Source of the DNA: Bacteroidota bacterium
Lineage (GTDB): Bacteria; Bacteroidota; Bacteroidia; JABDFU01
DNA length: 64,000 bases
Direction: 5' to 3'
Assembly (NCBI GenBank): GCA_016183775.1
Contig: JACPDY010000001.1
Coordinates: 2,190-66,189 of the forward strand
The notes under the pieces were generated by a model. That model did no database searches, was not told the origin of the DNA, and saw only the letters and a program-made list of their open reading frames with translations. Positions 29,933 to 62,708 of the stretch are shown here, in pieces. How positions within the stretch are numbered: the first letter of the stretch is position 1; each line of letters starts with the position of its first letter. Position numbers and translations under genes: made by a program.

Positions 29933-30031
29933 GAATAATGAATATCGAACAAGGAATAATGAATTTCGGGGTTCACCCGCACTTTTTTGTTTTTTCATTA
30001 TTCGAAATTCCTTGTTCGATATTCGTTATTC
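29933..30031. repeat. Inverted heptamer-array element, GAANNNN family (5 x 7 nt per arm)
   Basis: GAATAAT GAATATC GAACAAG GAATAAT GAATTTC (29933-29967) faces ATTATTC GAAATTC CTTGTTC GATATTC GTTATTC (29997-30031). The outer ~24 bp pair, with one G-T. It lies in the asnB-GT4 spacer. Confidence 0.85.
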
Positions 30032-35187: not shown

Positions 35188-35234
35188 GCCCCTATTTGAC
35201 TACCTTTGCAGCCCTTGATGGGATTATTTTTTCG

Positions 35235-40270: not shown

Positions 40271-40300
40271 ATTAACAAGTTGATATAAATAGACTATACC

Positions 40301-45621: not shown

Positions 45622-45641
45622 GGGTATAGTATTGTCCTTAA

Positions 45642-48600
45642 TCACGGTGCTGTAAGATTAACGTTAACACTGCAGCCATTTTTATCTTTTACATTTATAG
45701 AATATGTCCCAGGGCAAAGTTGATTTTTATACCGGTTCACATATCCATCCGGCCAGGTGTAGCTATAGGGCTCTATACCCCCTGTTGCATTTATCATTAT
45801 CCATTCTTTACAACCACAACCAATACAGTTGGCCGTGCCTTTGGTAAATAATACTGAAAGGGGAGGAGGAGAAGTTATCGCTGTAGTTGAAGTTGCGGTG
45901 CAACCTTTGCTGTCTGTCAACGTGATGGTATAATTTCCAGCACTCAAACCTGAAACAGTTGAACCTGAAACTAAATTACTCCAGCTGTATGTAAACCCGG
46001 GCGTACCACTGGTTGGATTTGCATTCGCGTTGCCGTTTGTACCACCATTGCAGCTTATGTTGGTTGCAGTTGTGTTAACAGTTACTGCAGGGTTAACTGT
46101 TACTACTGCTGTTGAAGTGGATGTATTTCCACCGGTATCTTTTATTGTTACCGTGTAGGTAGTAGTAACTAAAGGGCATGGTGCCGGTGTATTGTTTTGT
46201 GTGGTCACACCGTTGCTCCATAGGTAGGTATATGGAGGGGCTCCTCCTACAGCACTCGCTGTTATTGTTGCGCACACGCCCGGACAAACAGATGCGCCTG
46301 TGGTAGTTATAGCTGGGCTATTGCAGTTTGTAACATTTATATATTGGGTAACTGCGTTTGTGCAGCCGGCATTAGTTACAGTATGAGTAACGCTGTAAGT
46401 TCCGGCGGTTAAAAAAGTGGTGCAGAAGTTTGTTGTTGTTCCGCTAACATTCACAGGAGCTTCGATAGTCCATGAATGAGTGCCTGCAGAACCGGTATGG
46501 GTAAAACAGGATGGTTGATTTAAACAAACAGGTGGGCTGGTAAAGGTTGCAGAAGCCGCGCTTGATCCTGTTATGGTAACGGAACGGGTAACAGTACAGC
46601 CATTCCCATCGGTTACTGTAACTGTATATGTTCCCGCCGCAAGGTTTTTATTCAGGCAGGGGTTGCCACAATTTCCTCCTACTGTTGAACCGTTGCTCCA
46701 ACTGTAAGTATAAGAGTATAATGTGGGACCTGAAGCAGTTACCCCTGCGTAACTGTATCCGGTACAGGCAATGTTTTCGCTACTGGTACTAACAGACATT
46801 GGTTCATAAATTGATGTGAGTTCAGATGAGGCACATCCTTTGGAGTCGGTAATGGTAACAGAATAGGCTCCCAAACCTAAACCGGTTGCCGTTGGTGATG
46901 TGGAGCCGGTACTCCATGTGTACAAATAAGGAGGAAATCCACCTGATGCGCTTGCTGTGGCTGTACCCAAATTTGCCGCACAAACCGGTTGGGTAATTTT
47001 CGGAAGAAGCGGAGTGGGCTGACTTAGTACAATGGTGGATACTGAGACACAGGAACCCGTATTTACTGTTACAGTATATGTTCCGGCTTGTAAGTTTGTT
47101 GCCTGATTTGAGACCGATGAAGTAATGGCCTTAGTGCCATTGCTCCAGCTATACGTATAAGGTCCGGCGGGCCCGTTGCTGACTGTTACTATTGCGCCTC
47201 CTGTTGCGCCGAAACATTTGATACTTGGGTTTTCAACAATGGAGGCAGACATACTGCATCCGCAATTAATATCGCTGAGAGAAAACCTGGCCGTATCCTT
47301 ATTTCCGCAGGCGGAAGTTACTTCAACCCAGTAATTACCCGCACACAAGCCGGATATGCTGTCGGAGGTAACTGCGGTATTTAAAACTGTGCGTCCGGTA
47401 CTCCATATATAGCTTATTCCTGGCATATCGCATTGGGCGGTTACCTTTACTTTTCCGTTACAAGCATTGCATCCAATAGGATTATGTTGTTCGCTTTCCA
47501 GCGTCGTGGAAGATTCCGGTTTAAAACCAAGTTTGGCAATATACATATCATCCCTGCCACCATTGAATGAATTATTGAAATAGGTTCCGACACCGGCATT
47601 TGCAAGCGGATAAGTAGTGTTGCTTACTGCTGCGGAATTGAATTCAGTCCACTCTCCGCCCACAAACAAATTTCCGACATTGTCTAACGTTATCGGACTT
47701 CGAAAATCATTTCCATTGCCGCCAAAATAGGTACCCCATTGTAAAACTCCTGTATTGGAAAAACGAGCTAAGTAAATATCATTACTCCCGTTAGAAGTGC
47801 CGTCAAAATAAGCGCCTGAAAGAAATTGCACAGGAATGTCGGATGACCCTGTTTCAAACGACACAAAGAGGTGCCCGCATTCATCTGTTTGTATATTGTT
47901 ATGAGTTAAGAGTTCTGCGGGCCCCCGCGCAAGAATTGAAGGCAGTAGGCCAAGTGAGTATTCTGCCGAACTTCCCCCGTAATAAGTTGCCCAAAGACGC
48001 ATTCCGTTGTTGTCGAATTTAAGGATAAATGCATCGGAGTAGCCACTTAATGTTGATTTATAGTAGGAGTTTCCGCCTGGACTAAGGGTAGGCAGATCGG
48101 TTGATTTGGTTGAACCTGTTATAAAAACATTACCGCTACAATCGGTGGCAATAGAATAGCCATAATCATTTCCCTTTCCGCCATAAAAAGTCGCCCACAA
48201 GCGCACCCCATTATTACTGAATTTTAAAATGATAACATCTCCATTAAATACACCGGCGTAATTAGATCCTCCTCCATAACTTTGGGAATATGTTCCTGCC
48301 GGGGTGTATATAGGGAAAGACGATGAATTTAGGGAGGGGTTTTCAAAAACTCCGCTTACTCCTGTTATAAATACATTTCCAAAATTATCAACAACAATTG
48401 AATGCCCTGCCTCATCTTCATTTCCGCCATAACAAGTTGCCCATAGGAGTATACCTGTGTTGTTAAATTTTAGAATGAATAAATCCATCATACCAGAACT
48501 GTTTGGTACCTGAAAATAGGCCCCTCCTCCCGGATTATAAGTTGGAAATTGTGGGGGATTTCCTACTGTCATCATTGAGTTTGTCCATCCCGTTACAAAT

Positions 48601-50081
48601 ACATTTCCCATGTTGTCTGTTACGATAGAATTTCCCCAGTCAGTATTCCCACCACCATATAAAGTGGCCCAAAGGCGAATTCCGGAATTACTGAATTTAA
48701 GGATAAAAACATCGGTTTTATTAGAAAAACCATTGCTGAAATATGCACCACCAGCGGGATTGTACGTGGGGAATGGAGCGACATTGTCAACCCGTTCTGA
48801 GCGCCCTGTTACAAAAATATTTCCCATATTGTCCGTTGCCATAGACTGTGGCATTTCAAACCCGTTTCCTCCATAAAAAGTAGACCAAAGAAGAACACTT
48901 CCAGAAGTAAATTTCATTATAACTAAGTCAAATCCTTGAAATCCTCCCGCATACACTCCGTCAAAATAGGCTCCGCCGCCGGGGTTTAATGTGGGGAAAC
49001 TATTTTGTCCGGCATTCGGTCCGCTAGCCGTGTAAGCACAAATAAATAGATTGCCGGCTGCATCAGTGGCAACATCCATGATACCTCCATCTTGAGCACC
49101 TGCGCCATCTAGAAGAGTACTCCAAATAAGCTGTGGGTCGATGATTAAAGTAGATGTGAGATATGAGATGTGAGATAAGAGATGAAACGAAACAGAAGTT
49201 TCGTACCCTTCATCAACCTGCGTTGGTCGGCAAGAGTTTACATTTGTTTTTACAAATTTAGTTCTGATGCTCTCCCCTGTTTCTTTAATGTAACTAACCG
49301 GCGCGTTTTCTGTTAATGTGCCGTAAGGCGTTTTTATTTCAATGTTTCCCTGTTCATCAAACCGAAGTTTTTTTCCTGAGCGGTAAAGCAATTTAATGTT
49401 CGCTGGAACAGCACCGGGATGTACTTCAAAATCATATTTAAATCCTTTGTTATTGCTGTTATAAAATATCCAGTCGATGCCTGGATATACATTTTTAATA
49501 ATTATTTTGGAGTATGTGTGTACATCTGTCACTCCATTGGGACAATGTCCCAGAAAATATTGGTTAAACATTAAAGACTTGCCTTCCGTAACAATGTTTT
49601 CTTTTTTAATGCTGGCACCCTCCAGGTCCATGTCAATCCGGCTCCAGTTAAATGATTTAAATTCTTCTTCCCCTGTACTGAGCGTAGTCAAAGCATCTTC
49701 TTCTATTGATCCGTACGGTTCGCCTTGTTTATTTTTTTCTTTATTATTGCCTCGGTGTAATCCTTCCGGTTCTTTTTCTTCCTCATCTTTTGTCACACTG
49801 AGCCCCGTCGAAGCGTCTTTTATATCTTCCATGAAACAATAAGTAAGTCCTTTTTCTGTAACAAAGAGGTTCATGCCTGGTGCGGTTACCTGGTATAAAA
49901 CAAAGGGTACAGGTTTTCCCTGCATGTCTGTCATCTGTCCTTTGTTCTCTGTAAATTGTACGGGTTGTTCTTTCAGCCATTGCTGTGCCTGCTTTTTGAG
50001 TTCAGCTTCGTTCTCTGTTTTTGCTGCAAACAATGAAAGGCCTGCGAGAAAAAAAAGTAGGTATGTGAAAAGTTTTTTCAT
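45642..50081 (-). CDS. Giant secreted SBBP / SprB-repeat protein, tandem copy B
   Basis: 1479 aa with the signal MKKLFTYLLFFLAGLSLFAAKTENE and the same architecture as A and C. A 20-nt spacer separates it from gene A. Confidence 0.9.
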   Translation of the reverse strand: MKKLFTYLLFFLAGLSLFAAKTENEAELKKQAQQWLKEQPVQFTENKGQMTDMQGKPVPFVLYQVTAPGMNLFVTEKGLTYCFMEDIKDASTGLSVTKDEEEKEPEGLHRGNNKEKNKQGEPYGSIEEDALTTLSTGEEEFKSFNWSRIDMDLEGASIKKENIVTEGKSLMFNQYFLGHCPNGVTDVHTYSKIIIKNVYPGIDWIFYNSNNKGFKYDFEVHPGAVPANIKLLYRSGKKLRFDEQGNIEIKTPYGTLTENAPVSYIKETGESIRTKFVKTNVNSCRPTQVDEGYETSVSFHLLSHISYLTSTLIIDPQLIWSTLLDGAGAQDGGIMDVATDAAGNLFICAYTASGPNAGQNSFPTLNPGGGAYFDGVYAGGFQGFDLVIMKFTSGSVLLWSTFYGGNGFEMPQSMATDNMGNIFVTGRSERVDNVAPFPTYNPAGGAYFSNGFSNKTDVFILKFSNSGIRLWATLYGGGNTDWGNSIVTDNMGNVFVTGWTNSMMTVGNPPQFPTYNPGGGAYFQVPNSSGMMDLFILKFNNTGILLWATCYGGNEDEAGHSIVVDNFGNVFITGVSGVFENPSLNSSSFPIYTPAGTYSQSYGGGSNYAGVFNGDVIILKFSNNGVRLWATFYGGKGNDYGYSIATDCSGNVFITGSTKSTDLPTLSPGGNSYYKSTLSGYSDAFILKFDNNGMRLWATYYGGSSAEYSLGLLPSILARGPAELLTHNNIQTDECGHLFVSFETGSSDIPVQFLSGAYFDGTSNGSNDIYLARFSNTGVLQWGTYFGGNGNDFRSPITLDNVGNLFVGGEWTEFNSAAVSNTTYPLANAGVGTYFNNSFNGGRDDMYIAKLGFKPESSTTLESEQHNPIGCNACNGKVKVTAQCDMPGISYIWSTGRTVLNTAVTSDSISGLCAGNYWVEVTSACGNKDTARFSLSDINCGCSMSASIVENPSIKCFGATGGAIVTVSNGPAGPYTYSWSNGTKAITSSVSNQATNLQAGTYTVTVNTGSCVSVSTIVLSQPTPLLPKITQPVCAANLGTATASASGGFPPYLYTWSTGSTSPTATGLGLGAYSVTITDSKGCASSELTSIYEPMSVSTSSENIACTGYSYAGVTASGPTLYSYTYSWSNGSTVGGNCGNPCLNKNLAAGTYTVTVTDGNGCTVTRSVTITGSSAASATFTSPPVCLNQPSCFTHTGSAGTHSWTIEAPVNVSGTTTNFCTTFLTAGTYSVTHTVTNAGCTNAVTQYINVTNCNSPAITTTGASVCPGVCATITASAVGGAPPYTYLWSNGVTTQNNTPAPCPLVTTTYTVTIKDTGGNTSTSTAVVTVNPAVTVNTTATNISCNGGTNGNANANPTSGTPGFTYSWSNLVSGSTVSGLSAGNYTITLTDSKGCTATSTTAITSPPPLSVLFTKGTANCIGCGCKEWIMINATGGIEPYSYTWPDGYVNRYKNQLCPGTYSINVKDKNGCSVNVNLTAP
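49151..49185. repeat. In-CDS 5 x 7-nt array, TGAGATN family
   Basis: GTAGATG TGAGATA TGAGATG TGAGATA AGAGATG. It is read on the - strand as ..LLSHISYLTST.. in the linker before the first propeller blade of gene B. Confidence 0.85.
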
Positions 50082-50103: not shown

Positions 50104-53100
50104 TCAGGGTGCTGTAAGATTAACATTCACACTGCATCCATTCTTATCCTTAATGTTAATTGTATATGTTCCCGGACAAAGCTGATTTTTATACCTGTTC
50201 ACATATCCATCCGGCCATGTGTAGCTGTATGGATTTGTACCTCCTGCAGCGTTAATAATTATCCATTCTTTGCATCCACAACCACTGCAGCTTGCTGTTC
50301 CTTTTGTAAATTGTCCTGACAAGGGTGGAGGAGAAGTTATAGTGGCTGTTGATGTTGCTGTACAACCTTTGCTATCTGTTACTGTAACTGTGTAGATCTG
50401 AGATGTGAGATTTGAGATCTGAGATGTTGTTCCGCCATTACTCCAGGTGTAAATAAATCCTGGCGTACCATTGTTTGGATTTGCATTCGCGCTGCCGTTT
50501 GTGCTACCGTTGCAGTTTATGTTGGTTACAGTTGTGCTTAAGCTAACAGAAGGATTAACATTGACTACTGCGGTTGTAGTAGATGTATTTCCGCCGGAGT
50601 CGGTTACGGTTACAGTATATATTGTAGTTGCAGCAGGGCAGGGGTTTATATTTTGTGTAGTTGCGCCGTTATTCCACAAATAGGTATAAGGGCCGGTGCC
50701 GCCTGTACTACTTGATGTTATTGCTGCACAGGAGCCCGGACATACAGAGGTGCCGGTAGCTGTAACCGTTGGGCCATTACAATTAGTTCCATTTATATAT
50801 TGGGTTACTGTATTGGTGCATCCTGCGTTTGAAACTGTATGGGTAACACTATAGGTACCTGCGGTTAAAAAGGTATAACAAAAATTTGTTGTTGAGCCGC
50901 TTACACTCACAGGTGGTCCAATGGACCACGTATGTGTGCCTGCAGAACCCGTATGTGTAAAACAAGTGGCCTGATTTATGCAGGCTGGCGGGGCAGTAAA
51001 AGTTGCTGAAGCTGCACTTGATCCTGTAATGGTAACCGAACGGGTAACTGTACATTCATTACCATCGGTTACTGTAACTGTATATGTTCCCGCCGCGAGG
51101 TTTTTATTCAGGCAGGGGTTGCCACAATTTCCTCCTACTGTAGAGCCATTACTCCAGCTGTAAGTATAAGGGGATGTGCCAAAATTAGTGGTTATGCCTG
51201 CATAACTGTACCCGCTACAGGTAATATTTCCGCTGCTAGGACCCACAAGCATTGGTTCCTTAATTGATGTGAGTTCAGATGAAGTGCATCCTTTGGAGTC
51301 GGTAATGGTAACTGTATATGTTCCCAGATTTAATCCAGTTGCTGCTGGTGATGTGGAGCCGGTACTCCATGAGTACAAATAAGGAGGGGATCCACCTGTG
51401 GCGCTTGCTGTGGCTGTACCTAAATTTGCCGCGCAAACCGGCTGGGTAATTTTAGGGATAACAGGAAGTGGTTGACTTAGCGTTACGGAGGATACGGAGA
51501 CACAGGAACCGGTAATTACTCTTACAGTATATGTTCCGGCTGGCAAGTTTGTTGCCTGATTTAAGGTCGAAGAAGTAATGGCGTTAGTGCCATTACTCCA
51601 ATTATAGGTATAAGGGCCGCCGGGCCCGTTGCTTACTGTTACTATCGCGCCTCCTGTTGTGCCTATACATTTGATACCGGGGCTTTCAATAATGGAGGCA
51701 GACATACTGCATCCGCAATTAACATTGCTAAGTGAAAACCAGGCTGTGTCTTTTTCCCCGCAGGCGGAAGTTACTTCAACCCAGTAATTACCCGCGCATA
51801 AACCGGATATACTATCGGATGCCGCCGTGATGTTCAAAACAGTTCGTCCGGTACTCCATACATAACTTAAGCCGGCCATATCGCATTTGGCGGTTACTTT
51901 TGCTTTTCCGTTGCAGGCGCTGCATCCCACAGGATTATCCTGCCGGCTTTCCAGCTTATTTATTTCCGGCTCAAAACCAAGTTTGGCAATATACATGTCA
52001 TCCCTGCCGCCATTGAATGAATTATCATAATAAGCCCCTCCACCCGGAGTTGTAAGCGGATAGGTAGCATTGTTTATTGATGGGATATTATTAATAGTCC
52101 ACTCTCCGGCAACGAACAAATTTCCGAAATCATCTAACGCTATTGGGCTTCGAAAATCATTCCCATCGCCGCCGAAATAGGTACCCCATTGTAAAACTCC
52201 TGTATTGGAAAAACGGGCCAGGTAAATATCGTTATACCCGTTAAAAGTTCCGTCAAAATAGGCTCCTGAAAGAAATTGCACAGGAATGTCGGATGACCCT
52301 GTTTCAAACGACACAAAGAGATGCCCGCATTCATCCGTTTGTATATTGCTCCAGGTTGGTATAGCCGGTACAACACCATCATCGTATTCATTCATAGCAC
52401 CCCCATAATAAGTTGCCCAAAGCCTTTTTCCGGCGTTGTCGAATTTAAGGATAAACGCATCGTTGCTGCCACTTAATATTGATTTATAGTAGGAATTTCC
52501 GCCGGTATTAAGGGTAGGTAGATCGGTTGATTTAGTTGAACCTGTTACAAAAACATTACCGCTGCAATCGGTGGCTATGGAATTGCCAACATCAGAATCA
52601 GAACCGCCATAAAAAGTTGCCCAAAGCTGAACGCCACTGCTGCTGAATTTTAAAATAAAAGCGTCTCCACCATACAATCCATAACACATGCAAACAGTTG
52701 AGAATGGGCCCCCGCCATAAGCCTGAAAGTATGCCCCTGCCGGGCCCGGATTGGTGGGGAAATTATTTGATGGCGTTTTAGTTGCACCTGTTTTTCCTGT
52801 TACAAATACATTTCCAATTCCATCCACAGCTATGGAGTTGCCGGTATCTTCCGCAGAACCGCCATAAAAGGTTGCCCATTGCCTTATTCCCGAATTTGTG
52901 AATTTCAGAATAAACGCATCTGTTCCATTGGCTGCGTTTGCTCCCTGGAAGTATGCTCCTCCCAAGGCGTTTTGAGTTGGGAAAGTAGTTTGGGGAGGGG
53001 TATTATAATGAGAGATTGTGTACCCTGTCACAAACACATTTCCCGCATTATCCGTAATTATAGAATTTCCTCGGTCATCTCCACCACCTCCGTAATAGGT

Positions 53101-54429
53101 GGCCCACAGACGAACTCCGGCATTATTGAATTTCAGAATAAAGACGTCGGAACCATTCATAGTCCCGGAACCTCCTGCAAATGCCCCCTGGAAGTATGCT
53201 CCCGCACCTGGATTTTGAGTGGGAAAATTCGCTGTTGATGAATTATAAATGGGGTCATATCCGGATCCCGTATACCCCGTTACAAAAACATTTCCGGCAT
53301 TGTCAACAGTTATGGAATTGGCGAGATCTTTTTCGCCGCCACCATAATAAGTTGACCAAAGGCAAACACCTGATGGATTAAATTTTAAAATCACTGCATC
53401 TAAATATGCGAAAAAAGCCCCCCCTCCGTACACTCCCTGAAAATAAGCGCCGTTTCCGGGATTTATTGTAGGAAAAGTATTCTGAGTCACGTTGCCACCT
53501 GTATAACCACAAATAAATAGATTGCCAGCTGCATCAGTAGCAATATCCATGAAACCTCCATCCTGACTGGTCCAACTGGGAGAACTTGCGCCATCGTAAA
53601 ATGTTGACCAAACAAGTTGAGGGTCGATGATTAGGGTTCCGGGTTCAAGGTTCCGGGTTCCGTGTTCTAAATTAAATACAACTTGTGTTTCGTACCCTTC
53701 ATCAACCTGTGTGGGGCGGCAAGTAGTTACTTTTGTTTTTACAAATTTAGTTCTGATGTTCTCACCGGTTTCTTTAATGTAACTTATCGGCGCGTTTTCG
53801 GTTAATGTGCCGTATGGTGTTTGTATTTGTATATTGCCTTCTTGGTCAAAATGAAGGCGCTTGCCGGACCGGTAAAGTAATTTAATACTACCGGGATCAG
53901 CCCCGGGATGTACAGCAAAATCATATTTAAATCCTTTTTCGCCGCTGTTGTAAAATACCCAGTCAATACCGGGATAGATTTCTTTAATAGTAATTTTTGT
54001 ATAACTATGCACATCCAATACCCCATCTGGACAACCTGCCTTGCCGGCAGGCAGGTGACCCAGGTAGTACTGGTTAAAAGAATTTGATCTGCCTTCGGTT
54101 ATAATATTCGATTTTTTAATAGAAGCTCCTGCAAGGCCCATGTCAATGCGGCTCCAGTTAAATGGTTTAAATTCGCCTTCCTCCTCCGTAGGTACGGGTA
54201 ATCCCGTTTTTTCTTCGCGTTCGTTTTCCATGCTGAGCGCCGTCGAAGCATCTTTTACTTCTTCCATAAAGCAATACGTAAGTCCCTTTTCAGTAATAAA
54301 AAGATTCACGCCCGGTGCTCCGACCTGGAAAAGAACAAATGGTACAGGTTTGCCATTCATATCTGTCATAATAGTGGAGAGCATTAATATTCCATATTTG
54401 CAGGAAATATTTAAAAATCTATGGTTCAT
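50104..54429 (-). CDS. Giant SBBP / SprB-repeat protein, tandem copy C, 5'-truncated (no signal peptide; possible silent or pseudogene copy)
   Basis: The reading frame is intact, but similarity to copy B begins exactly at the Met codon at 54367-54369 (MTDMNGKPVPFVLFQ...). The 20 upstream codons (MNHRFLNISCKYGILMLSTI) are unrelated. The signal peptide and the AAKTENE...QAQQWL...F.ENKGQ segment are missing. Confidence 0.75.
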   Translation of the reverse strand: MNHRFLNISCKYGILMLSTIMTDMNGKPVPFVLFQVGAPGVNLFITEKGLTYCFMEEVKDASTALSMENEREEKTGLPVPTEEEGEFKPFNWSRIDMGLAGASIKKSNIITEGRSNSFNQYYLGHLPAGKAGCPDGVLDVHSYTKITIKEIYPGIDWVFYNSGEKGFKYDFAVHPGADPGSIKLLYRSGKRLHFDQEGNIQIQTPYGTLTENAPISYIKETGENIRTKFVKTKVTTCRPTQVDEGYETQVVFNLEHGTRNLEPGTLIIDPQLVWSTFYDGASSPSWTSQDGGFMDIATDAAGNLFICGYTGGNVTQNTFPTINPGNGAYFQGVYGGGAFFAYLDAVILKFNPSGVCLWSTYYGGGEKDLANSITVDNAGNVFVTGYTGSGYDPIYNSSTANFPTQNPGAGAYFQGAFAGGSGTMNGSDVFILKFNNAGVRLWATYYGGGGDDRGNSIITDNAGNVFVTGYTISHYNTPPQTTFPTQNALGGAYFQGANAANGTDAFILKFTNSGIRQWATFYGGSAEDTGNSIAVDGIGNVFVTGKTGATKTPSNNFPTNPGPAGAYFQAYGGGPFSTVCMCYGLYGGDAFILKFSSSGVQLWATFYGGSDSDVGNSIATDCSGNVFVTGSTKSTDLPTLNTGGNSYYKSILSGSNDAFILKFDNAGKRLWATYYGGAMNEYDDGVVPAIPTWSNIQTDECGHLFVSFETGSSDIPVQFLSGAYFDGTFNGYNDIYLARFSNTGVLQWGTYFGGDGNDFRSPIALDDFGNLFVAGEWTINNIPSINNATYPLTTPGGGAYYDNSFNGGRDDMYIAKLGFEPEINKLESRQDNPVGCSACNGKAKVTAKCDMAGLSYVWSTGRTVLNITAASDSISGLCAGNYWVEVTSACGEKDTAWFSLSNVNCGCSMSASIIESPGIKCIGTTGGAIVTVSNGPGGPYTYNWSNGTNAITSSTLNQATNLPAGTYTVRVITGSCVSVSSVTLSQPLPVIPKITQPVCAANLGTATASATGGSPPYLYSWSTGSTSPAATGLNLGTYTVTITDSKGCTSSELTSIKEPMLVGPSSGNITCSGYSYAGITTNFGTSPYTYSWSNGSTVGGNCGNPCLNKNLAAGTYTVTVTDGNECTVTRSVTITGSSAASATFTAPPACINQATCFTHTGSAGTHTWSIGPPVSVSGSTTNFCYTFLTAGTYSVTHTVSNAGCTNTVTQYINGTNCNGPTVTATGTSVCPGSCAAITSSSTGGTGPYTYLWNNGATTQNINPCPAATTIYTVTVTDSGGNTSTTTAVVNVNPSVSLSTTVTNINCNGSTNGSANANPNNGTPGFIYTWSNGGTTSQISNLTSQIYTVTVTDSKGCTATSTATITSPPPLSGQFTKGTASCSGCGCKEWIIINAAGGTNPYSYTWPDGYVNRYKNQLCPGTYTINIKDKNGCSVNVNLTAP
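50392..50426. repeat. In-CDS 5 x 7-nt array, TGAGATN family
   Basis: GTAGATC TGAGATG TGAGATT TGAGATC TGAGATG. It encodes ..TSQISNLTSQIY.. in the penultimate SprB repeat of gene C. Confidence 0.85.
53634..53668. repeat. In-CDS 5 x 7-nt array, GGGTTCM family
   Basis: GGGTTCC GGGTTCA AGGTTCC GGGTTCC GTGTTCT. It encodes ..EHGTRNLEPGT.. at the site homologous to 49151-49185. Confidence 0.85.
54033..54057. repeat. In-CDS copy of the AACCTGCCT..CCGGCAGGCAGGT palindrome (in-frame 21-nt insertion)
   Basis: AACCTGCCTTGCCGGCAGGCAGGTG matches 21071-21095 at 22 of 25 positions. It adds LPAGKAG inside the otherwise conserved GHCP.G motif. Confidence 0.85.
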
Positions 54430-54467
54430 GCCCTTTTGATTTTACTTCGTAAATTTCATAGTATATT

Positions 54468-54686
54468 TTACCACATCCTAAACAAATCTTCGTACATCAT
54501 TGAATGTGGCCGGTTATAAATATCTTCCGGCACTTTCATTTTTGATTTCTTAAAGGCGGATAATGTTTTCGATGAAGTCCGGGGCTTAACTTTTCTTCCA
54601 TTTAATTTTTTTTCTTTTTTCATTTGCACATTTGTTGTTTTACGAATAAAGTTATGGTTTTCTTGCATGACTGATATTATATACAA
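54468..54686 (-). CDS. Small basic hypothetical protein
   Basis: 72-aa ORF, lysine-rich (KKEKKLNGRKVKPRTSSKTLSAFKKSKMK). It has no recognisable family, several possible internal starts, and sits between the protease and giant copy C. Confidence 0.3.
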   Translation of the reverse strand: MYIISVMQENHNFIRKTTNVQMKKEKKLNGRKVKPRTSSKTLSAFKKSKMKVPEDIYNRPHSMMYEDLFRMW

Positions 54687-54710
54687 ATGGTTAAATCCAT
54701 TTATATCTGG

Positions 54711-57700
54711 CTAATATATTATAACCTTTTTTACGATTTCATTTTTTGTATTTTTTAATCTAACCTGATAAATCCCACTGCCGGATGTTGCAATATTTAT
54801 TTGTTTGGAATAAATGCCGCTGAAGTCAGGTAATAATTCGCAGTAAACTAATTGTCCAAGCATGTTTTTTATTTCAATGGTATAGTTTGATAGAGCCGTA
54901 GCATGAACGTATATCGCAAAATTACCATCTGTAGGGTTTGGATAAATGTTCAGAAGAGGTATGTCAGAAAAGGAATCAATCCCTACAGTTGACATTATTA
55001 CGGGTGATGATGGTGCGGAAGAGCAGCCATTTGTAGTCACAACAACCGTATAACTTCCGTTCTGCGCCACAGTATGCGTTTGGTTGGTAGCCCCCGGTAT
55101 AGAATTTCCATTTAAATACCATTGATTTCCGGTAGCGGAACTTGATGTCAACACACTTCCCGCCTGCGAGATCACCGGTGTGGCAGGGATCGCGTTGATG
55201 GTCATTGTAACACCTGTACTTGTGGCTGTTACCGGGCTCGCGCAAGCAGCATTCGATGTGAGCACACAGGTAACAACCTGTCCATTGGTCAACGTACTTG
55301 TTGTAAATGTTGCGCTATTGGTGCCCGCATTAACTCCATTTATTTTCCACTGGTAAGCAGGTGTGGTTCCGCCATTGGTTGGCGCAGCGGTAAATGTTAG
55401 CGAAGTGCCTGCACAGGTCGGATTAGTACCTGTTGTTAAAGAAGCAGCGACATCAGGTGTTACAGATGAATTAATTGTCATTGTTACACCTGTACTTGTA
55501 GCAGTGGCCGGATTTGCGCAGATAGCATTAGAAGTTAGTACACAGGTTACAACTTGTCCATTTGTAAGAGTACTTGATGTAAATGTTGTGCTATTGGTTC
55601 CTGCATCAACTCCGTTTACTTTCCATTGATAAGCAGGCGTTATTCCACCGTTTGTTGGTGTTGCGGTAAATGTTACCAACGCACCGGCACATGCCGGGTT
55701 ATTACCCAATGTTATAGCAGATGAAACAGCAGGTGTTACAGATGGGTTGATTGTCATTGTTATACTGTTGGAGGTTGCAGGATTGCCCGTAACACCGGGA
55801 AGGTTCGAGGTCATTTCGCATGTAACTGCCTGTCCGTTTGTTAAAGTTGCAGTTGTATACGTTGGACTGTTTGTGCCTACATTGACTCCATTTACTTTCC
55901 ATTGGTAAACAGGTGTTGTTCCACCGTTTGAAGGGGTAGCTGTAAAGGTAACAGAAGATCCTGAACACGCAGGATTTACTCCTGTTGTTTGTACTACTGA
56001 AACAGCAGCGGCCATATTTGTTCCGGCAATAATTATATCATCCAGATATAAATTGTTGCCTGCACCTCCCTTATTCATAAAAATAAATATAGCGGTTGAA
56101 CTCGCTGCTACTGATGGTGGCAGGAGGTAGGCTTCATTGCGCCACTGTGTTGTCCCTGAAGGAATAAACGGAGATGTTGTGGTTCCTGCTACTGTAGCCA
56201 GCGTGCTGCCCCATTTTTTATATAATAGCCCATATGTTTTGCCGCAATCGGTGGAAACCAATACCAGCAGTGTATCTGCCGGATAACCTGTTTGGGGTTG
56301 ATATGCAACCTGAAATGATATGGCAGGATTGCTTGCTGTGGTAAGGTCAAGTACGGGGGTACTCATGTAATCTGTTGTCCCATAAAAAGGGTCATAATAG
56401 TTTAGCATGAGGGCACTGCGACTGCCTGAATATTTTGCAACAGTCGTTGGAGCCCATGTTAATTCCCCATCTGGATTGCTCAACCCCCAATCGGGTGGGG
56501 GGAAGGTTCCTTCAAAGCCTTCTGTAAAAGGCAAGGCAGCACCTGTTTGCACCACATTAATGGTTGATTTTAATGTGTCATTGCTTATAAAACCGTCAAC
56601 TCCACCGTTAGGGGCGGAAGTGTAAGCTGTAAACGTATGTTTCCCATATGCAAATGTTGTAGCCGGTAAAGTAACAGCAGTGGCAGAACCCGAAGCCAGG
56701 CTGCCTGTCCAGTTATGCACGGAGGGTGAATTATTATCCACTTTGTAATTTATTTTTAAAGAAGAGAGTGCGGAAGTTCCAACATTTCTGATCACCACCT
56801 GCATCGCCAGAGATGTAGTACATGTAGTGCCGGAACTAAGTCCGATCGGAGATGCATTTAGTGAAAACACAGTTCCTTGTGCACACTGCAGGGCAGCCAA
56901 CGCGTCAATTCGTCCTGTTCCCATCAATCCGGCATACGAGGGATTAAGCGCATCTATATTTGTTGTAGTAGACTTGAGACAATTAATAGCCTGCTCCTGC
57001 GTTAGGTTTGGATTTACCGAAAGTATCAGCCCTAGTAAACCGCTTACTGCCGGTGCTGCCATGGAAGTTCCGGTATAGCTGGTGTACGAATTTGTGGGTA
57101 TTGTGCTGTAAATACCAGTGCCGGGTGCTGAAACATCTACCCAGCTGTTATACGTTGAAGAGGATTCTTTAATATCGGAGCTGTTTGTAGCAGTAACACA
57201 CACTACATTATTCATTGCTCCCGGATATACTTTATTATTGATGCCGCTATTTCCGGCTACAGCCACAACAATAGAACCCCTGTTATACGCCCAGTCAATA
57301 ATGGCCTGCCTGGTTGTTGAATAAGAAGCGGAGCCAAAAGAACAATTAATTACTCTCGCGTTGTTTAATGCTGCGTAATAAATACCGGGTGTTGCACTGG
57401 TCATTACATCGGAAGCATCAGGTGCTGCTTTTACGCACATTAATTTTATGTTTGAACCTATTGAGGCAATTCCAATCCCGTTATTGCTTTTTGCCGAAAC
57501 GATTCCGGCCACGTGTGTACCATGACTAAAGCTTGTATTAGGAGGGTTAGGGTCATTGTTGCCATCAGCGAGGTCATACCCGTTAATATCGTCAATATAT
57601 CCGTTGTTATCATTGTCAATGCCGTCACCGGCTATCTCTCCCGGATTTACCCAGATATTCGGCTGCAGATCGGGGTGTGTGGTTTGTATGGCATTATCAA

Positions 57701-58220
57701 CTATGGCTACAACTATGTTCGCGTTTCCTGTGGAAATATCCCATGCCGCTGCTGCATTTATCTTGGCGAGTGACCATTGTGAGCCATAACTCGGATCGTT
57801 AGGTGTGAAACAGGCATAATCTTTTGGTTCCCTTTCCACATACTCCGCAATACCTGAGCCTTCAAGTCGTTCGAGTAGATCACTCACTTTGCTATGGTCA
57901 GCAAATTCAATACTTAGTATGCGGCTAATGTCATCTGATCCGGATTTATGAAAAGGAGATCGGACCCTTTTAATGGCATATTGATCTGTTATTCTTGAAA
58001 TAACAGGAACGTCCGATATTTTTATTTCATCCGAAACGGGACTAATAGTATGGGGTATTGTTTGGCCCGGCTTTAGTTTTAGCCATATTTTGCCTTCAAC
58101 ATAATCAGCTTGTATACTTTGTGCACTGCAAAGGGGTGTTCCGAATAATGTAAATAGTAATCCTAAAATAGTTAACATATTTACAAATGGGGTGCGGCTC
58201 GTGCTCGTATTTGCTTTCAT
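54711..58220 (-). CDS. Secreted subtilisin-family (S8) serine protease with type-A T9SS C-terminal sorting domain
   Basis: It has a signal peptide and the catalytic triad motifs VAIVDNAI (D), HGTHVAGIV (H) and GTSMAAPAVSG (S). There are three consecutive ~78-aa repeats (NP.C.G....FTA.P.NGG.TP.YQWK.NGV..GTNS..F....L.NGQ.VTC). The C-terminus IYPNPTDGNFAIY...GIYQVRLKN...VKKVIIY matches the Por_Secre_tail pattern. Confidence 0.92.
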   Translation of the reverse strand: MKANTSTSRTPFVNMLTILGLLFTLFGTPLCSAQSIQADYVEGKIWLKLKPGQTIPHTISPVSDEIKISDVPVISRITDQYAIKRVRSPFHKSGSDDISRILSIEFADHSKVSDLLERLEGSGIAEYVEREPKDYACFTPNDPSYGSQWSLAKINAAAAWDISTGNANIVVAIVDNAIQTTHPDLQPNIWVNPGEIAGDGIDNDNNGYIDDINGYDLADGNNDPNPPNTSFSHGTHVAGIVSAKSNNGIGIASIGSNIKLMCVKAAPDASDVMTSATPGIYYAALNNARVINCSFGSASYSTTRQAIIDWAYNRGSIVVAVAGNSGINNKVYPGAMNNVVCVTATNSSDIKESSSTYNSWVDVSAPGTGIYSTIPTNSYTSYTGTSMAAPAVSGLLGLILSVNPNLTQEQAINCLKSTTTNIDALNPSYAGLMGTGRIDALAALQCAQGTVFSLNASPIGLSSGTTCTTSLAMQVVIRNVGTSALSSLKINYKVDNNSPSVHNWTGSLASGSATAVTLPATTFAYGKHTFTAYTSAPNGGVDGFISNDTLKSTINVVQTGAALPFTEGFEGTFPPPDWGLSNPDGELTWAPTTVAKYSGSRSALMLNYYDPFYGTTDYMSTPVLDLTTASNPAISFQVAYQPQTGYPADTLLVLVSTDCGKTYGLLYKKWGSTLATVAGTTTSPFIPSGTTQWRNEAYLLPPSVAASSTAIFIFMNKGGAGNNLYLDDIIIAGTNMAAAVSVVQTTGVNPACSGSSVTFTATPSNGGTTPVYQWKVNGVNVGTNSPTYTTATLTNGQAVTCEMTSNLPGVTGNPATSNSITMTINPSVTPAVSSAITLGNNPACAGALVTFTATPTNGGITPAYQWKVNGVDAGTNSTTFTSSTLTNGQVVTCVLTSNAICANPATATSTGVTMTINSSVTPDVAASLTTGTNPTCAGTSLTFTAAPTNGGTTPAYQWKINGVNAGTNSATFTTSTLTNGQVVTCVLTSNAACASPVTATSTGVTMTINAIPATPVISQAGSVLTSSSATGNQWYLNGNSIPGATNQTHTVAQNGSYTVVVTTNGCSSAPSSPVIMSTVGIDSFSDIPLLNIYPNPTDGNFAIYVHATALSNYTIEIKNMLGQLVYCELLPDFSGIYSKQINIATSGSGIYQVRLKNTKNEIVKKVIIY

Positions 58221-58643: not shown

Positions 58644-60542
58644 ATGATTTCATCCAATCGAATACTATTTTATCTATTTTCTTTTTTTATGAGTTTTAAT
58701 GCTTTAATTAAGGCCGATTCAACTCTTAGAGCATCTTTACCATTGAGTCCATTACCTTTCAATTTGGATACTCAGGAAGTGCGAAAATTTGTTGACAGTA
58801 CAATGAAGTGCTATCGGATAGGGCAATTTGAATCGGCAATGAAATATGTCAAATTGATTTCAATAATTTCTGAAAAAATAAACTATAGTGAAGGAAAGGC
58901 TCTCGCGGCAAGATGGACCGGATCCATTTATAGGGAACAAGGAGAACTAAATCTGGCTAAAGAACATTTTAAAAAAGCATTGAAATTATATGAAGAGATA
59001 AATAATTACAAGGGCATTGTAAAATTAAATAATATTTTGGGCGACTATTATTATAATATGAGCGACTTTACTATTTCGCTCGAACATTATATTAAAGCAC
59101 TGAATATAAATGAATTTAAAAAGGATATGGATGGGCTTTCGATTTCATACAACAATATTGGTCGAATATACTACTCTCAGGAAAACTATGATATGGCTTT
59201 GCGTTATTATGCAAAATCTATTGAAATAAAAAAAGCGTTTCATCATAAAGCCAGCTTAGCCAATACATATAATAATGTGGCGCGAACCTATTTAAAAATG
59301 CTCCGGTATGATTCAGCCTATTATTATTTTGATCAAGCCTGGATTATATACAATTTGACCGGAGAAAAGGTCGGAGAAGCTGATTCTCACATGTCAATTG
59401 GAAATGTGCAATACGAAACAGGGGACTATTTAAGTGCAATTATTTCGCAGAACAAAGCACTTAGTATTTATGAAACAAATGGTGATTTATTAAGGATCGC
59501 TATTTGTCAACTTGCACTGGGCAAAGCCTTTTTTAAGTTACATGATTTAAAAAAGGCGGAGACTTATTTTAACAAAGCATTAGCCGGGAGCATTAAATAC
59601 AAGTTAAAAAAAACTGCTATGGAAGTTTATTTGAATTTAGCACATCTTAAGGATGCCGAAGCAGAATACAAACTGGCACTCGGGTATTATAAACTATACT
59701 CCGAAATGAAAGATTCTATTTTCAAGGAAGAAACAAGGAATAAGATCATTGAAATAAATGAAAGGTACGAGAATACAAAGAAAGATAAAGCCATTGCTGA
59801 ATTGAACCAGGAGAAAAGCAGAATAATTGCAGAAAATAATTTAAAAACTATTGAGCGGGAGAACAGGACAAAAATACTTTTCACTATTATGTTATCTCTT
59901 TCCATAATGCTTTTGATCTTTTACAGATTTCTCAATATAAAACAGCAAAAGGAAAGGCAAAAGGAATTTACAATGCAGTTAATTGAATCGCAGGAAGATG
60001 AACGCAAACGGATATCGAAAGATCTGCATGATGGCATAGGACAAAATTTACTTGTTATAAAAAATTCATGCAAAGAACAATTACCTTTAATAGAATCAAC
60101 AATTGAGGACTTGAGAAATATTTCAAGAAATATGCATCCTGTGCAACTTGAAAAATTAGGATTTATAAAGGCAACTGAAAGTGTTATCGTGGAAGCAAAA
60201 CAAAACAGCACTATTTTATTTACCTATGAACTGGATGATGTAGATGCAATGTTAACACCAAGCCGAAAGATAAATTTATTCAGAATAATTCAGGAATGCA
60301 TCAGCAATATTATTAAGCACTCCGGAACATCTGCCGCTAAAATATCCGTATTAATAAGCAAAAACAATATTGTAACTTCTATATACGACAAAGGAAAGGG
60401 TTTTGATATAAAAGAAACAAAAAAGAGAAAGTCATTGGGCTTAACTTCTATTGCTGAAAGGGTTGAACTGATGGATGGGAAATTAAATATCAGCAGTAAT
60501 AGTAAAGGGACGCGAATAGAAATAATACTTAAGCATGCCTGA
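58644..60542 (+). CDS. TPR-repeat sensor histidine kinase (HisKA_3 / NarL-partner type)
   Basis: N-terminal signal/TM, about 8 TPR-like repeats, one TM segment (ILFTIMLSLSIMLLIFYRF), an H-box ERKRISKDLHDGIGQNL and a HATPase_c domain. Confidence 0.88.
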   Translation: MISSNRILFYLFSFFMSFNALIKADSTLRASLPLSPLPFNLDTQEVRKFVDSTMKCYRIGQFESAMKYVKLISIISEKINYSEGKALAARWTGSIYREQGELNLAKEHFKKALKLYEEINNYKGIVKLNNILGDYYYNMSDFTISLEHYIKALNINEFKKDMDGLSISYNNIGRIYYSQENYDMALRYYAKSIEIKKAFHHKASLANTYNNVARTYLKMLRYDSAYYYFDQAWIIYNLTGEKVGEADSHMSIGNVQYETGDYLSAIISQNKALSIYETNGDLLRIAICQLALGKAFFKLHDLKKAETYFNKALAGSIKYKLKKTAMEVYLNLAHLKDAEAEYKLALGYYKLYSEMKDSIFKEETRNKIIEINERYENTKKDKAIAELNQEKSRIIAENNLKTIERENRTKILFTIMLSLSIMLLIFYRFLNIKQQKERQKEFTMQLIESQEDERKRISKDLHDGIGQNLLVIKNSCKEQLPLIESTIEDLRNISRNMHPVQLEKLGFIKATESVIVEAKQNSTILFTYELDDVDAMLTPSRKINLFRIIQECISNIIKHSGTSAAKISVLISKNNIVTSIYDKGKGFDIKETKKRKSLGLTSIAERVELMDGKLNISSNSKGTRIEIILKHA

Positions 60543-61191
60543 AATAAAAGTTATAATTGCCGACGATCATCCGCTATTCCGCTTAGGATTGGTGAGTGCT
60601 GTAAAACAAAGCAGTAATATAATTTTGTGTGGAGAAGCTGAAAATGGAGGGGAGGCTTTAAGTTTAATTCGTGTACATGAACCTGATGTAGCTATACTTG
60701 ACGTTGAAATGCCATTAATGAATGGATTGCAGGTTTGCGAAACGGTTTGTGCGGAAAAAATAAAAACCAAAGTCTTGATTTTAACCTTCTTTAAAGAGAA
60801 AGATTTGTTTGAAAATGCAATGAGTATTGGTGCCTGGGGATATTTGTTAAAAGATAATGCCATAAATGAATTGGTTGCTGCAATTGAAGCAATTGCTAAA
60901 GGGGATAAATACATTAGCCCTACTTTAAAAAGTAATTTAATAAAAGCAAAAAGTCATCTTGTGAATGATCCTGTAGTGGCTGAAATGATAAACAAGTTAA
61001 GTATTACTGAAAAGAATATTTTGCTACTCATTGCTGAAGAAAAAACCACAAAAGAGATCGCAGCGGAATTGTTTGTCTCTGAAAAAACTATCGAAAACCA
61101 TAGGTACAATATAGTCAGGAAATTAAATTTGGAAAGCGGCAAAAATAATTTGCTGAAGTTTGCTCTTTCCAATAAGGCATATTTTAAATAG
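60535..61191 (+). CDS. LuxR/NarL-family response regulator
   Basis: Receiver domain (IADDHPLFRLGL, phospho-Asp in ILDVEMP) and a C-terminal LuxR HTH (TEKNILLLIAEEKTTKEIAAELFVSEKTIENHRYNIVRKL). It overlaps the kinase gene by 8 nt. Confidence 0.9.
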   Translation: MPEIKVIIADDHPLFRLGLVSAVKQSSNIILCGEAENGGEALSLIRVHEPDVAILDVEMPLMNGLQVCETVCAEKIKTKVLILTFFKEKDLFENAMSIGAWGYLLKDNAINELVAAIEAIAKGDKYISPTLKSNLIKAKSHLVNDPVVAEMINKLSITEKNILLLIAEEKTTKEIAAELFVSEKTIENHRYNIVRKLNLESGKNNLLKFALSNKAYFK

Positions 61192-61385
61192 TGATCTTAC
61201 CCCTCCTTATTAACACACCGCTGTTTGTAAGTTAGAAACTGTATTCGTTTCCTAACCTTCATTTTAAAATAGTTTTGTAAGGATTTGTTTCAACAATGGT
61301 TGGACCGTTTGTTTGCGTGAATAAAAGATGCATTTAAATTAATGAAATTGTGTCAAAAATATTTTTAACGCGAATTTTTAAAAAC

Positions 61386-62693
61386 ATGACACGAAAAAAA
61401 CTAGGAATCGCATTAGTGCTGGTTTTTATCTGCAGTGTGGGGTATTCACAAGTCGTTCCGGCTACATTTGGTAAACTTCCAATATTAACAGGTGGTATTG
61501 GTGTCCTTATTTTTAACGGCGATATAGGTAATAACAGTGATCTTAGTTCCTATAGCAGGATCAGGGCCGGGTATAACCTTACAGTTGAACAGCGTTTTGG
61601 AAAGCTGATTGGTGTGGCATTCACAGGTGCGTTTGGTAAACTGGCTCAAAGTGAGCGTTCCAAAACAAGCAACAATAACTTTGAATCAAAAATTATGCAG
61701 GGCGATCTTAGCCTGGTTCTCCATACTGACAAGATCTTTGAGAATTCAAGCCTAACACCATACGTTGCCGCCGGAATTGGCTATCTCTTATTTGACCCGC
61801 ATGGTGATCTGTATGATAAGAATGGCTTGAAATATAATTATTGGTCGGATGGAAGTATCCGGGATAAAACAGAATCCCCCGTAAATATTCCAGTTGCAAA
61901 AACATTGCAGCGGGATTATACTTACGAAACCCAACTGAAAGACAGCACTACAAATTACACGCGCAGTACGTTAACCGTTCCTTTAACTTTTGGTTTTAAC
62001 TTTAAGATACTTGACAACTTCGAAGCCAGCCTTGGAGGAACATACTTCTTCACGTTTACTGATCATATCGATAATATTAAAGCGGGGAGCGGTAACGATT
62101 CCTATTTCTATACCCGTGTTGGTCTCAGTTATATTTTTGGTCATGGTGAAAGAACAGCTGATCCAAAGCGGTACGAAAACGTAGATTTTGGAAAAATTGA
62201 TGATGTTGATAGTGATGGAGATGGTGTAAAAGACATCCGGGATAAATGTGCGGGAACAGATAAAGGTGTTAAAGTTGATTCAGATGGCTGTCCGTTTGAT
62301 ACCGATAAAGATGGTGTCCCTGATCATTTGGATAAAGAAGCGAACTCCCAAAAAGGAGCTGTTGTTGATGCCAATGGTGTTACACTTACCGATCAGATGT
62401 TAGCAGAAAAGCAGGCAGCATGGGAGGCTGCGGCTGCCGAACGCAGCGAATCATTTAATGCAAATCCTTCACAGATGAGCATAGAGCAAATTGAAAAAAG
62501 TGCTCAGGAAGTCAGAAGTCAGTCTGGTTCCCAAAAAACTTTACCTGTTGAGTTTCAGTCAGCCGATTTTGATAAAAATGGTTTTATTACGGTAAGTGAG
62601 ATCAACCAGGTGGTGGATGGATTTTTTACCGGGGAGAATGATTTTACTGTGGAAAGGATCAATCGTCTGATTGACTTTTTCTTTGAACAATAA
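61386..62693 (+). CDS. Outer-membrane beta-barrel protein with thrombospondin type-3 (Ca-binding) repeats and a C-terminal EF-hand-like loop
   Basis: The ATG at 61386 gives the signal MTRKKLGIALVLVFICSVGYSQ. The N-terminal half has alternating beta-strand character. Then come DSDGDGVKDIRDKC...DSDGCPFDTDKDGVPDHLDKE (TSP3-type) and DFDKNGFITVSEI (an EF-hand loop). No OmpA_C domain is present. Confidence 0.7.
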   Translation: MTRKKLGIALVLVFICSVGYSQVVPATFGKLPILTGGIGVLIFNGDIGNNSDLSSYSRIRAGYNLTVEQRFGKLIGVAFTGAFGKLAQSERSKTSNNNFESKIMQGDLSLVLHTDKIFENSSLTPYVAAGIGYLLFDPHGDLYDKNGLKYNYWSDGSIRDKTESPVNIPVAKTLQRDYTYETQLKDSTTNYTRSTLTVPLTFGFNFKILDNFEASLGGTYFFTFTDHIDNIKAGSGNDSYFYTRVGLSYIFGHGERTADPKRYENVDFGKIDDVDSDGDGVKDIRDKCAGTDKGVKVDSDGCPFDTDKDGVPDHLDKEANSQKGAVVDANGVTLTDQMLAEKQAAWEAAAAERSESFNANPSQMSIEQIEKSAQEVRSQSGSQKTLPVEFQSADFDKNGFITVSEINQVVDGFFTGENDFTVERINRLIDFFFEQ

Positions 62694-62708
62694 CCAAACA
62701 ACAAAAAT

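Follow-up and report, generated by a model that had tools for sequence, protein, structure and literature searches.

This stretch of DNA, a 64,000-nucleotide (nt) window of a Bacteroidota contig, raises the question of why two neighbouring paralogs, genes B and C, should carry at one shared interdomain site tandem arrays of seven-nucleotide units that are unrelated to each other in sequence. Together with gene A they form a tandem group whose products measure approximately 1,450–1,500 residues each and consist of an N-terminal DUF7948 domain, SBBP beta-propeller repeats and SprB/PKD repeats; dispersed family members at 699-3698, 5453-9514 and 23096-26392 bring the total to six copies in 64 kb. 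A preliminary description of the window had recorded five imperfect heptamers in each gene and proposed that a class of short periodic DNA had been written into a permissive linker twice, perhaps as a contingency switch.

Both arrays were found where they had been described (C, 53634-53668; B, 49151-49185), next to the shared anchors GTCGATGATTA and TTTCGTACCC, and the translations given for them, EHGTRNLEPGT in C and LLSHISYLTST in B (minus strand), are correct. Tandem Repeats Finder (TRF) returned a period of 7 in both cases, with 4.9 copies in C (53634-53667) and 4.6 copies in B (49152-49183), where a period of 14 (2.4 copies, 94% matches) is an alternative solution. The periodic stretch covers the entire linker in both genes, 42 nt in C and 39 nt in B (Table 1), and lies in frame inside intact open reading frames (ORFs). 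It is interrupted by point substitutions, and the longest perfect period-7 tract measures 14 nt in C and 13 nt in B, which is less than two units. Copy A is non-periodic at this site, as had been stated, but the same does not hold for all dispersed paralogs, since the one at 5453-9514 carries an array with the word and reading frame of gene C (GT.N.EP).

The site lies between DUF7948 and the SBBP propeller, and in an AlphaFold2 (AF2) model of gene C residues 25-460 (mean predicted local distance difference test score, pLDDT, of 72) it forms a loop between strands E221-230 and E242-248, in agreement with its earlier assignment as a linker. When its length is measured from the conserved Phe codon to the ATH-ATH-GAY of 'IIDP', it is equal in the presence or absence of an array (13–14 codons throughout), and the array-free copies in A and in the related loci L006 and L001 match C. 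Because length is the same in homologues with and without an array, those of B and C are not insertions; a mobile-element footprint was not seen at the linker either, be it added length, a target-site duplication, or terminal or flanking repeats. The two arrays are coding heptanucleotide microsatellites that fill a 13–14-codon interdomain loop (39–42 nt; 42 = 6 x 7 = 14 x 3) between DUF7948 and the SBBP propeller.

Scans of genome and metagenome collections yielded 73 loci, and with the window included, 88 distinct copies of the 'xIDP' anchor were mapped by tblastn. Around each of these anchors, the stretch from -750 to +3000 nt was scored for short-period arrays whose unit is not a triplet. 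Of the 21 arrays, ten fall into one and the same 50-nt bin immediately before 'xIDP' (P = 5e-14 for this given bin), where the period is either 7 or 8; four more lie in a second loop at approximately -290 nt, and seven are scattered. All carriers belong to the long-linker subfamily, of which they represent about 40%, with the exception of the paralog at 5453-9514, and no arrays were detected among the sampled copies of the short-linker 'DYNSTQTL' subfamily. The variable-length, low-confidence loops of the model (residues 249-262, residues 304-314 and the acidic N-terminal stretch) are free of arrays in all 88 homologues. An echo is also visible at the protein level, where at least three lag-7 identities occur in the linker of 7 out of 135 representative homologues, versus 1.7% of control windows. 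The second site, located between 'IDWVLY' and 'G[FL]KYDF' some 290 nt upstream of the linker, harbours ACTAAAG/GACTCGA heptamers and AAAGTTGG octamers (L042, 2275-2307 and 6425-6452; L037, approximately 6307-6327; L047, 591-610), and there the arrays do lengthen the loop.

The linker arrays can be sorted into word families. Family (i), NNNATCT, comprises B, L008, L009 and L018, which share one register and all end in ACATCT[GA]; their peptides (FHLPSAISHPTSAL and similar) correspond to the three-frame translation of (CATCTGC)n. Family (ii), GGAACNN, is found in C, the paralog at 5453-9514, L062 and L079, all of which read G-T-x-N. Family (iii), CCAA[AC]CT, occurs in L004 and L052, and family (iv) is the octamer CATTCNCT of L003. 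The genes of family (i) are only about 45% identical at the protein level, yet both periodicity and synonymous sites are kept. Within the array, four of the five codons that specify residues common to all four genes are identical (TCT, ATC, ACA, TCT), and the fifth varies solely at the variable position of the heptamer; in the flanks, identity extends to only 12 of 72 such codons (Fisher P = 0.006). Since synonymous codons are retained in the array and saturated in the flanks, it is the periodic DNA, and not the peptide alone, that is conserved or continually regenerated. The same peptide encoded non-periodically in distant orthologues, which the preliminary description would have taken as a sign of convergence, is not what we observed: the relatives are periodic and their synonymous sites conserved, which favours an element at the level of DNA. 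In addition, the words recur in other genomes in register and in frame (that of B in L008, L009 and L018; that of C in L062, L079 and the paralog at 5453-9514), so that the arrays look inherited or exchanged between paralogs rather than newly written. Together with the unchanged linker length, this speaks against the proposal that the linker was written into twice.

Three independent homologues are frameshifted exactly at the array, each being one heptamer off the canonical length. In L062, whose linker reads (AACTTGG)3(AACTTTC)2..., the frames upstream and downstream of the array differ, and removal of one unit restores the frame, the linker length of C and a similar peptide, FNLELGTFNFPLSTL; the two sub-arrays look like word turnover caught midway. 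L077 and L078 represent one allele found in two samples, with (AATTCAA)3.6 in a gene that is called as two ORFs (6001-6951 and 6948-8858) and that is brought into frame, with a 39-nt linker, by one additional unit. In L079 (GGAACTT GAAACTT GGAACTT GGAATTT; ORFs 2911-3738 and 3720-5432) one more unit likewise yields an in-frame gene with a 42-nt linker. Among the 12 linker arrays tabulated, two of the three longest perfect tracts belong to out-of-frame alleles. The structural hallmarks of a simple sequence repeat (SSR) frameshift locus, namely a tandem tract within an ORF and a unit that is not a multiple of three, are hence both present. The suggestion of a contingency switch is strengthened by these three genes, and weakened by the imperfect tracts of B and C themselves.

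Other candidates for frameshifting were set aside. Three more proteins truncated at the linker (P0016, P0009 and P0004, from L074-L076) come from short contigs in which unrelated DNA follows, and were not counted. Family homology ends there in or just past the linker (L074, approximately 1400-1440; L075, approximately 4180-4200; L076, approximately 1290-1358), which probably reflects assembly breaks or ends, or chimeras at conserved flanks, and may reflect linker rearrangement. In L006 the frameshift is due to a single-base change at 'DFVVHPG', away from any array. Programmed ribosomal frameshifting was rejected as an explanation for the split genes because the three cases would require shifts in opposite directions, in the absence of a canonical slippery site.

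Period-7 DNA is not confined to the linker. In a uniform scan with one scoring scheme and dinucleotide-shuffle controls, the window contained 8 period-7 arrays versus 0.10 expected (maximum 1), and none of the other periods between 4 and 13 was enriched, the signal at period 14 being a harmonic. Of approximately 60 short-period arrays in 792 kb of related loci, 37 have period 7; the class of short periodic DNA that had been postulated is real and extends across the clade. Within the window the word family GAACCNN occupies six loci and ATCTCAN two, both far above shuffled sequences. GGAACCC is found in the linkers of C and of the paralog at 5453-9514, in the last SprB repeat of A (in opposite orientation) and in a hairpin arm at 18884, while ATCTCA is found in the linker of B and in the last SprB repeat of C, 1.2 kb apart. 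Recurrence of the GGTTC/GAACC word in the arms of two intergenic hairpins, reported earlier, was also verified.

In the SprB repeats, the array of C matches the position of that of A, and ATCTCAN there replaces a GGTTTCA-type array (degenerate in B) with no change in length. This 'WSNG..T..I.NL..G.Y' loop constitutes a third recurrent array site, with different words in A and C; ATCAACA- and AAATCAC-type arrays occupy it in L003 (12940-12969 and 13390-13418) and L071 (10477-10495), and encode similar peptides (SSINNLQSTIY, KSQITNL). Inverted heptamer arrays form strong hairpins just past stop codons, with folding z values of -4 to -8.5. The one at 16620-16676 has a folding energy of -28.4 kcal/mol (z = -7.1), and the one at 18842-18924 (z = -4.0) has unequal arms of 25 nt and 41 nt (18842/18884); further cases lie at 29932-30031, in L040 (6139-6238) and in L063 (68-137). 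These structures look like terminator stems made of tandem repeats. Among related loci, L016 carries a heptamer array (886-930; peptide EKTEISSLKTQISNLN) in a DnaE-type polymerase gene, at the linker that joins the RNase_T exonuclease domain to the PHP domain, and in L022 a protein sorted by the type IX secretion system (T9SS) has a signal peptide whose hydrophobic core is encoded by (TTTTTCA)4.5 (4259-4290). Lastly, a perfect (ATTACTC)n array approximately 75 nt upstream of an ATG has 16 units in metagenome contig L060 (230-342) and at least 18 in L059 (1-127), which begins within the array, although the two contigs share 99.945% identity over 9.1 kb; as far as these assemblies can be trusted, unit number does change in this clade.

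Table 1. Heptamer arrays of the window and the tandem genes that carry them
Feature	Position	Strand	Description
Gene C linker	53632-53673	minus	42 nt, 6 heptamers, 14 codons; coding strand AATTTAG AACACGG AACCCGG AACCTTG AACCCGG AACCCTA (the five units first described are 53634-53668); encodes NLEHGTRNLEPGTL between the conserved F codon and IIDP
Gene B linker	49146-49184	minus	39 nt; coding strand CATCTCT TATCTCA CATCTCA TATCTCA CATCTAC TTTA; encodes HLLSHISYLTSTL
Paralog 5453-9514 linker array	6372-6402	plus	TGACCTT TGAACTT GGAACCT GGAACCC GGA; encodes FELGTWNPE
Gene C, last SprB repeat	50391-50425	minus	CATCTCA GATCTCA AATCTCA CATCTCA GATCTAC (word of the B linker); encodes TSQISNLTSQIY
Gene A, last SprB repeat	41429-41455	minus	GGGTTCC GGGTTCC AGGTTTC AGGTTT (GGTTC word); encodes GSGFQVSG
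Intergenic hairpin	16620-16676	plus	(A/G)GTTTCA x3.6 paired with AACCTGA-type units; right after the stop of ORF 15749-16621
Intergenic hairpin	18842-18924	plus	GGTTTCA x3.6 paired with TGAACC(T/C) x5.9; between ORF 17483-18835 and lgt (18928)
Gene A	41125-45645	minus	DUF7948, SBBP propeller, SprB/PKD repeats; linker approximately 44793-44834, non-periodic
Gene B	45642-50081	minus	DUF7948, SBBP, SprB; signal peptide present
Gene C	50104-54429	minus	DUF7948, SBBP, SprB; no signal peptide

Taken together, these data make it fairly probable, as far as can be judged from sequence comparison, that the linker houses a persistent coding heptanucleotide microsatellite that is maintained by slippage and is able to turn the gene off. 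Its origin would lie in the ancestor of the long-linker subfamily, as one event or a small number of them, and replication slippage would have kept it periodic, with units gained, lost and homogenised while the word slowly drifts. A further contribution may come from short-patch conversion between paralogs, for which the conserved flanks GGNTAYGARAC and ATHATHGAYCC would serve. Seven not being divisible by three, gain or loss of a single unit shifts the frame; the protein would then be truncated after the N-domain (OFF), and changes of three units, or compensating changes, would keep it in frame (ON). B and C themselves are probably slow or locked-ON, stable versions of a mutational switch that would be more active in relatives with perfect arrays.

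Several observations weigh against this reading. The long, perfect tract expected of a hypermutable locus is absent from B and C and is found instead in relatives (L004, L062 and L078 reach 25–26 nt); with imperfect arrays such as those of the window, slippage should be slow. Local slippage alone leaves unexplained the unrelated words of the sister paralogs B and C, and is also insufficient to account for the word variants GGAACCC and ATCTCA at unrelated sites of the genome, in both orientations, which hint at copying between loci or at a word-specific factor and give the copying envisaged in the preliminary description some room. An array also occupies the linker of an essential DnaE-type polymerase (L016), so arrays can be coding without acting as switches. 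A deliberate look at proteins truncated at the linker is what brought up two of the three frameshifted genes; all three come from metagenome contigs and may be pseudogenes or, with lower probability, errors of assembly. No locus among those compared yielded both an ON and an OFF allele, and a poorly resolved neighbour-joining tree does not decide between a single and a recurrent origin.

If slippage does maintain the array, the odds are roughly even between switching that is selected, as phase variation, and switching that is merely tolerated in a dispensable family. The strongest point for mere tolerance is provided by the arrays in the exonuclease–PHP linker of L016 and in the signal peptide of L022; the strongest point against it is that arrays have been kept at the linker through deep divergence while the other variable loops named above are array-free.

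Another explanation does without a switch and without selection: the arrays could be a neutral by-product, heptamers being generated by a slippage bias of the lineage and surviving only at places where any sequence will do as long as its length is right, and the frameshifted genes could be ordinary pseudogenes of a redundant family. It is consistent with the varied contexts in which arrays occur, which include intergenic hairpins, a signal peptide and an essential polymerase for which ON/OFF control would be useless, with the degenerate state of the B and C arrays, and with their membership in a large, multi-copy family, here in a 20-kb accessory segment that is missing from the closest relative. 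On the other hand, neutral decay should have erased the arrays, periodicity and synonymous sites have nevertheless persisted between genes as divergent as those of family (i), and residues 249-262, residues 304-314 and the acidic N-terminal stretch are variable in length and hold no arrays. We thus regard a neutral origin as unlikely, though far from negligible.

At the opposite extreme, the DUF7948-propeller linker could be a family-wide hypermutable cassette, in which a microsatellite is kept throughout the history of the subfamily, with its word turning over and its length fixed, by second-order selection for an ON/OFF surface repertoire (exposed, for example, to phages and grazers), and in which an additional process spreads words among coding loops, SprB repeats and terminator hairpins. 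This extended scheme seems to us unlikely.

The view of the preliminary description was that an already periodic piece of DNA (an element, mobile or templated, of the class seen in the hairpin arms) had been inserted or copied into the linker on two occasions with different words. It would readily account for the GGAACCC and ATCTCA variants at unrelated loci of the genome, for the two ATCTCA arrays, which share a length of 35 nt, the ending ATCTAC and the nucleotide at 30 of 35 positions, and for the exchange of a GGTTTCA-type array for ATCTCAN in the SprB repeat of C at constant length. The 30/35 identity, however, follows almost wholly from the common six-of-seven word, the linker shows neither added length nor target duplications nor terminal repeats, and both words sit at this site in homologues from other metagenomes, with register and frame unchanged. 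Moreover, no transposase, reverse transcriptase or integrase was identified among the 24 largest ORFs scanned. Insertion or copying is thus very unlikely. A diversity-generating retroelement was also considered and rejected, as no reverse-transcriptase domain was present in these 24 ORFs and the differences between the ATCTCAN arrays (T>A, T>G, C>A, T>C, C>G) are not adenine-specific.

It is also conceivable that the periodic DNA or RNA is itself functional, as a site for a repeat-binding protein or as a translational pause between domains, and is kept by selection on the nucleic acid. The conserved synonymous sites of the ATCT core and the reuse of related words in terminator-like hairpins are in line with this idea, and TAACTGA repeats of Beggiatoaceae, cyanobacteria and a few Bacteroidetes have been suggested to act in regulation (PMC4679880). 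The words of different homologues are, however, unrelated (ATCT-, GGAAC- and CCAAACT-types and the octamer of L003) and offer no common binding motif; the coding arrays have no predicted RNA structure (folding z = 0.2 and 0.3) and Rfam gave no match anywhere in the window; and approximately 60% of the closest subfamily, copy A included, is array-free. Such a function is highly improbable. Convergence, whereby a selected loop peptide and codon usage would make the DNA appear periodic, can point to the pattern F-x-[FL]...[ST]-[ST]-x-L-x-IDP shared by homologues with and without an array, but is largely refuted and hardly credible, given that a 7-nt period places one word in all three frames, which peptide selection cannot produce, that codons are identical at four- and six-fold degenerate sites in the array while conserved residues of the flanks use all synonymous codons, and that the peptides of different words are unrelated.

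The family of genes A, B and C is very large (approximately 158,000 clusters at 50% identity match a DUF7948-plus-propeller profile), the closest match to A/B/C-type genes in the genome collection is 48% identical, and an exact-sequence lookup of gene C returned no match. A, B and C lie in a 20.2-kb segment (41018-61203) together with an S8 subtilase with a T9SS tail (54711-58220), a tetratricopeptide repeat (TPR) histidine kinase (58644-60542) and an ORF at 60535-61191, the segment including a two-component pair. The segment is missing from the closest relative contig, L080, where approximately 78 nt stand in its place; this contig is collinear with the window at 32437-41017 and 61204-63997, with 87% nucleotide identity and a UvrA that is 94% identical. 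Neither a transfer RNA gene nor an obvious flanking repeat was seen at the segment boundaries. Dating by orthologues gave no A/B/C orthologue, as the relatives reached through UvrA (94% and 85% identical) are collinear on both sides and lack 41018-61203.

Within the tandem group, nucleotide identity between B and C varies from approximately 0.2 to 0.94 along the alignment, a mosaic pattern that indicates gene conversion among the A/B/C paralogs; in a C-terminal tract (approximately 50610-50790) A and C are 85–90% identical, and B and C approximately 60–70%. Gene C lacks the first ~45 residues of A and B, its homology beginning at MTDMNGKPVPF, and no signal peptide was found upstream in any frame (5' region, 54300-54710); it could be a silent copy, or one that is truncated at the 5' end or not exported. 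Pfam (E <= 0.001) detected neither a CHU_C nor a Por_Secre_tail sorting domain in A, B or C, whose C-termini (41125, 45642 and 50104) consist of an SprB-type repeat (...NLTAP), whereas the L079 homologues carry CHU_C. A fold search with the N-domain and propeller gave weak matches to CylK-type propeller enzymes only, and was uninformative on the linker.

The remainder of the window is ordinary Bacteroidota chromosome, with mutL, two rhomboid genes, lgt, asnB, capsule genes, uvrA and the T9SS subtilase, as well as a radical S-adenosylmethionine (SAM) methylthiotransferase-like gene (UPF0004 and radical SAM domains). In the subtilase gene, TRF detected a 276-nt unit present twice with 78% identity (55201-55762), presumably a duplicated immunoglobulin (Ig)/PKD-like domain. 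A (GGTTAC)n hexamer tract (34522-34572) lies at the 3' end of a Wzz/GNVR/AAA_31 gene (32176-34644), and would presumably give a Gly-Tyr run, like the tyrosine-rich tail of bacterial tyrosine (BY) kinases.

SSR phase variation is known almost entirely from host-adapted pathogens, mostly with units of 1–5 nt, and we know of no established role for heptamer repeats in bacteria. The locus described here offers a position-conserved heptamer site in a very large family, natural alleles that are one unit off, and a simple arithmetic rule, 6 x 7 = 14 x 3. It bears on two questions, namely whether heptamer slippage varies the surface repertoire of environmental Bacteroidota, and how a non-triplet microsatellite can persist within a gene. 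Even if switching has no adaptive value, the locus illustrates cleanly how a lineage-specific mutational process can colonise a permissive linker. Gene callers call for caution here, too, since they split genes of this kind into two.

With respect to known repeats, heptamers are the commonest long simple sequence repeats (LSSRs) in bacteria and have been reported in a few Bacteroidetes (PMC4679880, PMC4692102); their predominance among prokaryotic LSSRs is attributed, in the summaries given by these two articles, to Mrazek et al. 2007. The arrays of this clade resemble heptanucleotide LSSRs and the cyanobacterial short tandemly repeated repetitive (STRR) sequences in that many loci exist per genome, with a strong and specific excess of period 7 and a few word families, in that most are intergenic and often near gene ends, and in that origin and spread are unexplained in both. 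They differ in their words, in the organisation of the intergenic arrays as inverted hairpin pairs, and in a sizeable coding share focused on one protein family. TAACTGA direct repeats have been described in Beggiatoaceae, cyanobacteria and five Bacteroidetes (MacGregor 2015, PMC4679880). These are also heptamer direct repeats, present in Flexibacter litoralis, Gramella forsetii and Aequorivita, with a few of the arrays inside ORFs; unlike the present arrays, which have varied words and occupy a coding loop, they consist of one fixed word and mostly lie just upstream of start codons. Dimers of TAACTGA, CCCCAGT, TTGGTCA and CAACAGT (the TAACTGA and STRR1-3 units) are absent from both strands of the window. 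The linker arrays are thus not TAACTGA or STRR repeats by word, nor do they bear a mobile-element footprint or represent the target of a diversity-generating retroelement.

The closest parallels are found in Haemophilus influenzae, where hmw1A of strain PittAA contains (AATTTTG)14 located 3.5 kb inside the gene and is frameshifted, and where an AACAACC heptanucleotide tract lies within an HI1369 homologue; besides hmw1A, a TonB-dependent receptor gene is known there to have an intragenic heptanucleotide tract with a frameshift (PMC2651432). As in these SSR loci, the tandem unit described here is 7 nt long, not a multiple of three, and lies within the coding sequence of a large gene of surface or adhesin type that belongs to a multi-copy family, and alleles are out of frame by a whole unit. 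In contrast to them, the tracts described here have 4–7 units that are mostly imperfect, and lie in a conserved interdomain loop rather than at the 5' end or in the promoter; their position is conserved across a subfamily of free-living or environmental Bacteroidota, and any switching by them is putative. In Burkholderia mallei and B. pseudomallei, non-triplet repeats in genes for surface proteins give rise to frameshift variants between strains. The Burkholderia repeats are not known to keep a conserved place in a domain architecture, and phylum and units differ from the present case. We place the linker of genes B and C among the SSR frameshift loci, a known kind, its unusual feature being a tract of conserved position and fixed length across a protein subfamily in environmental bacteria.

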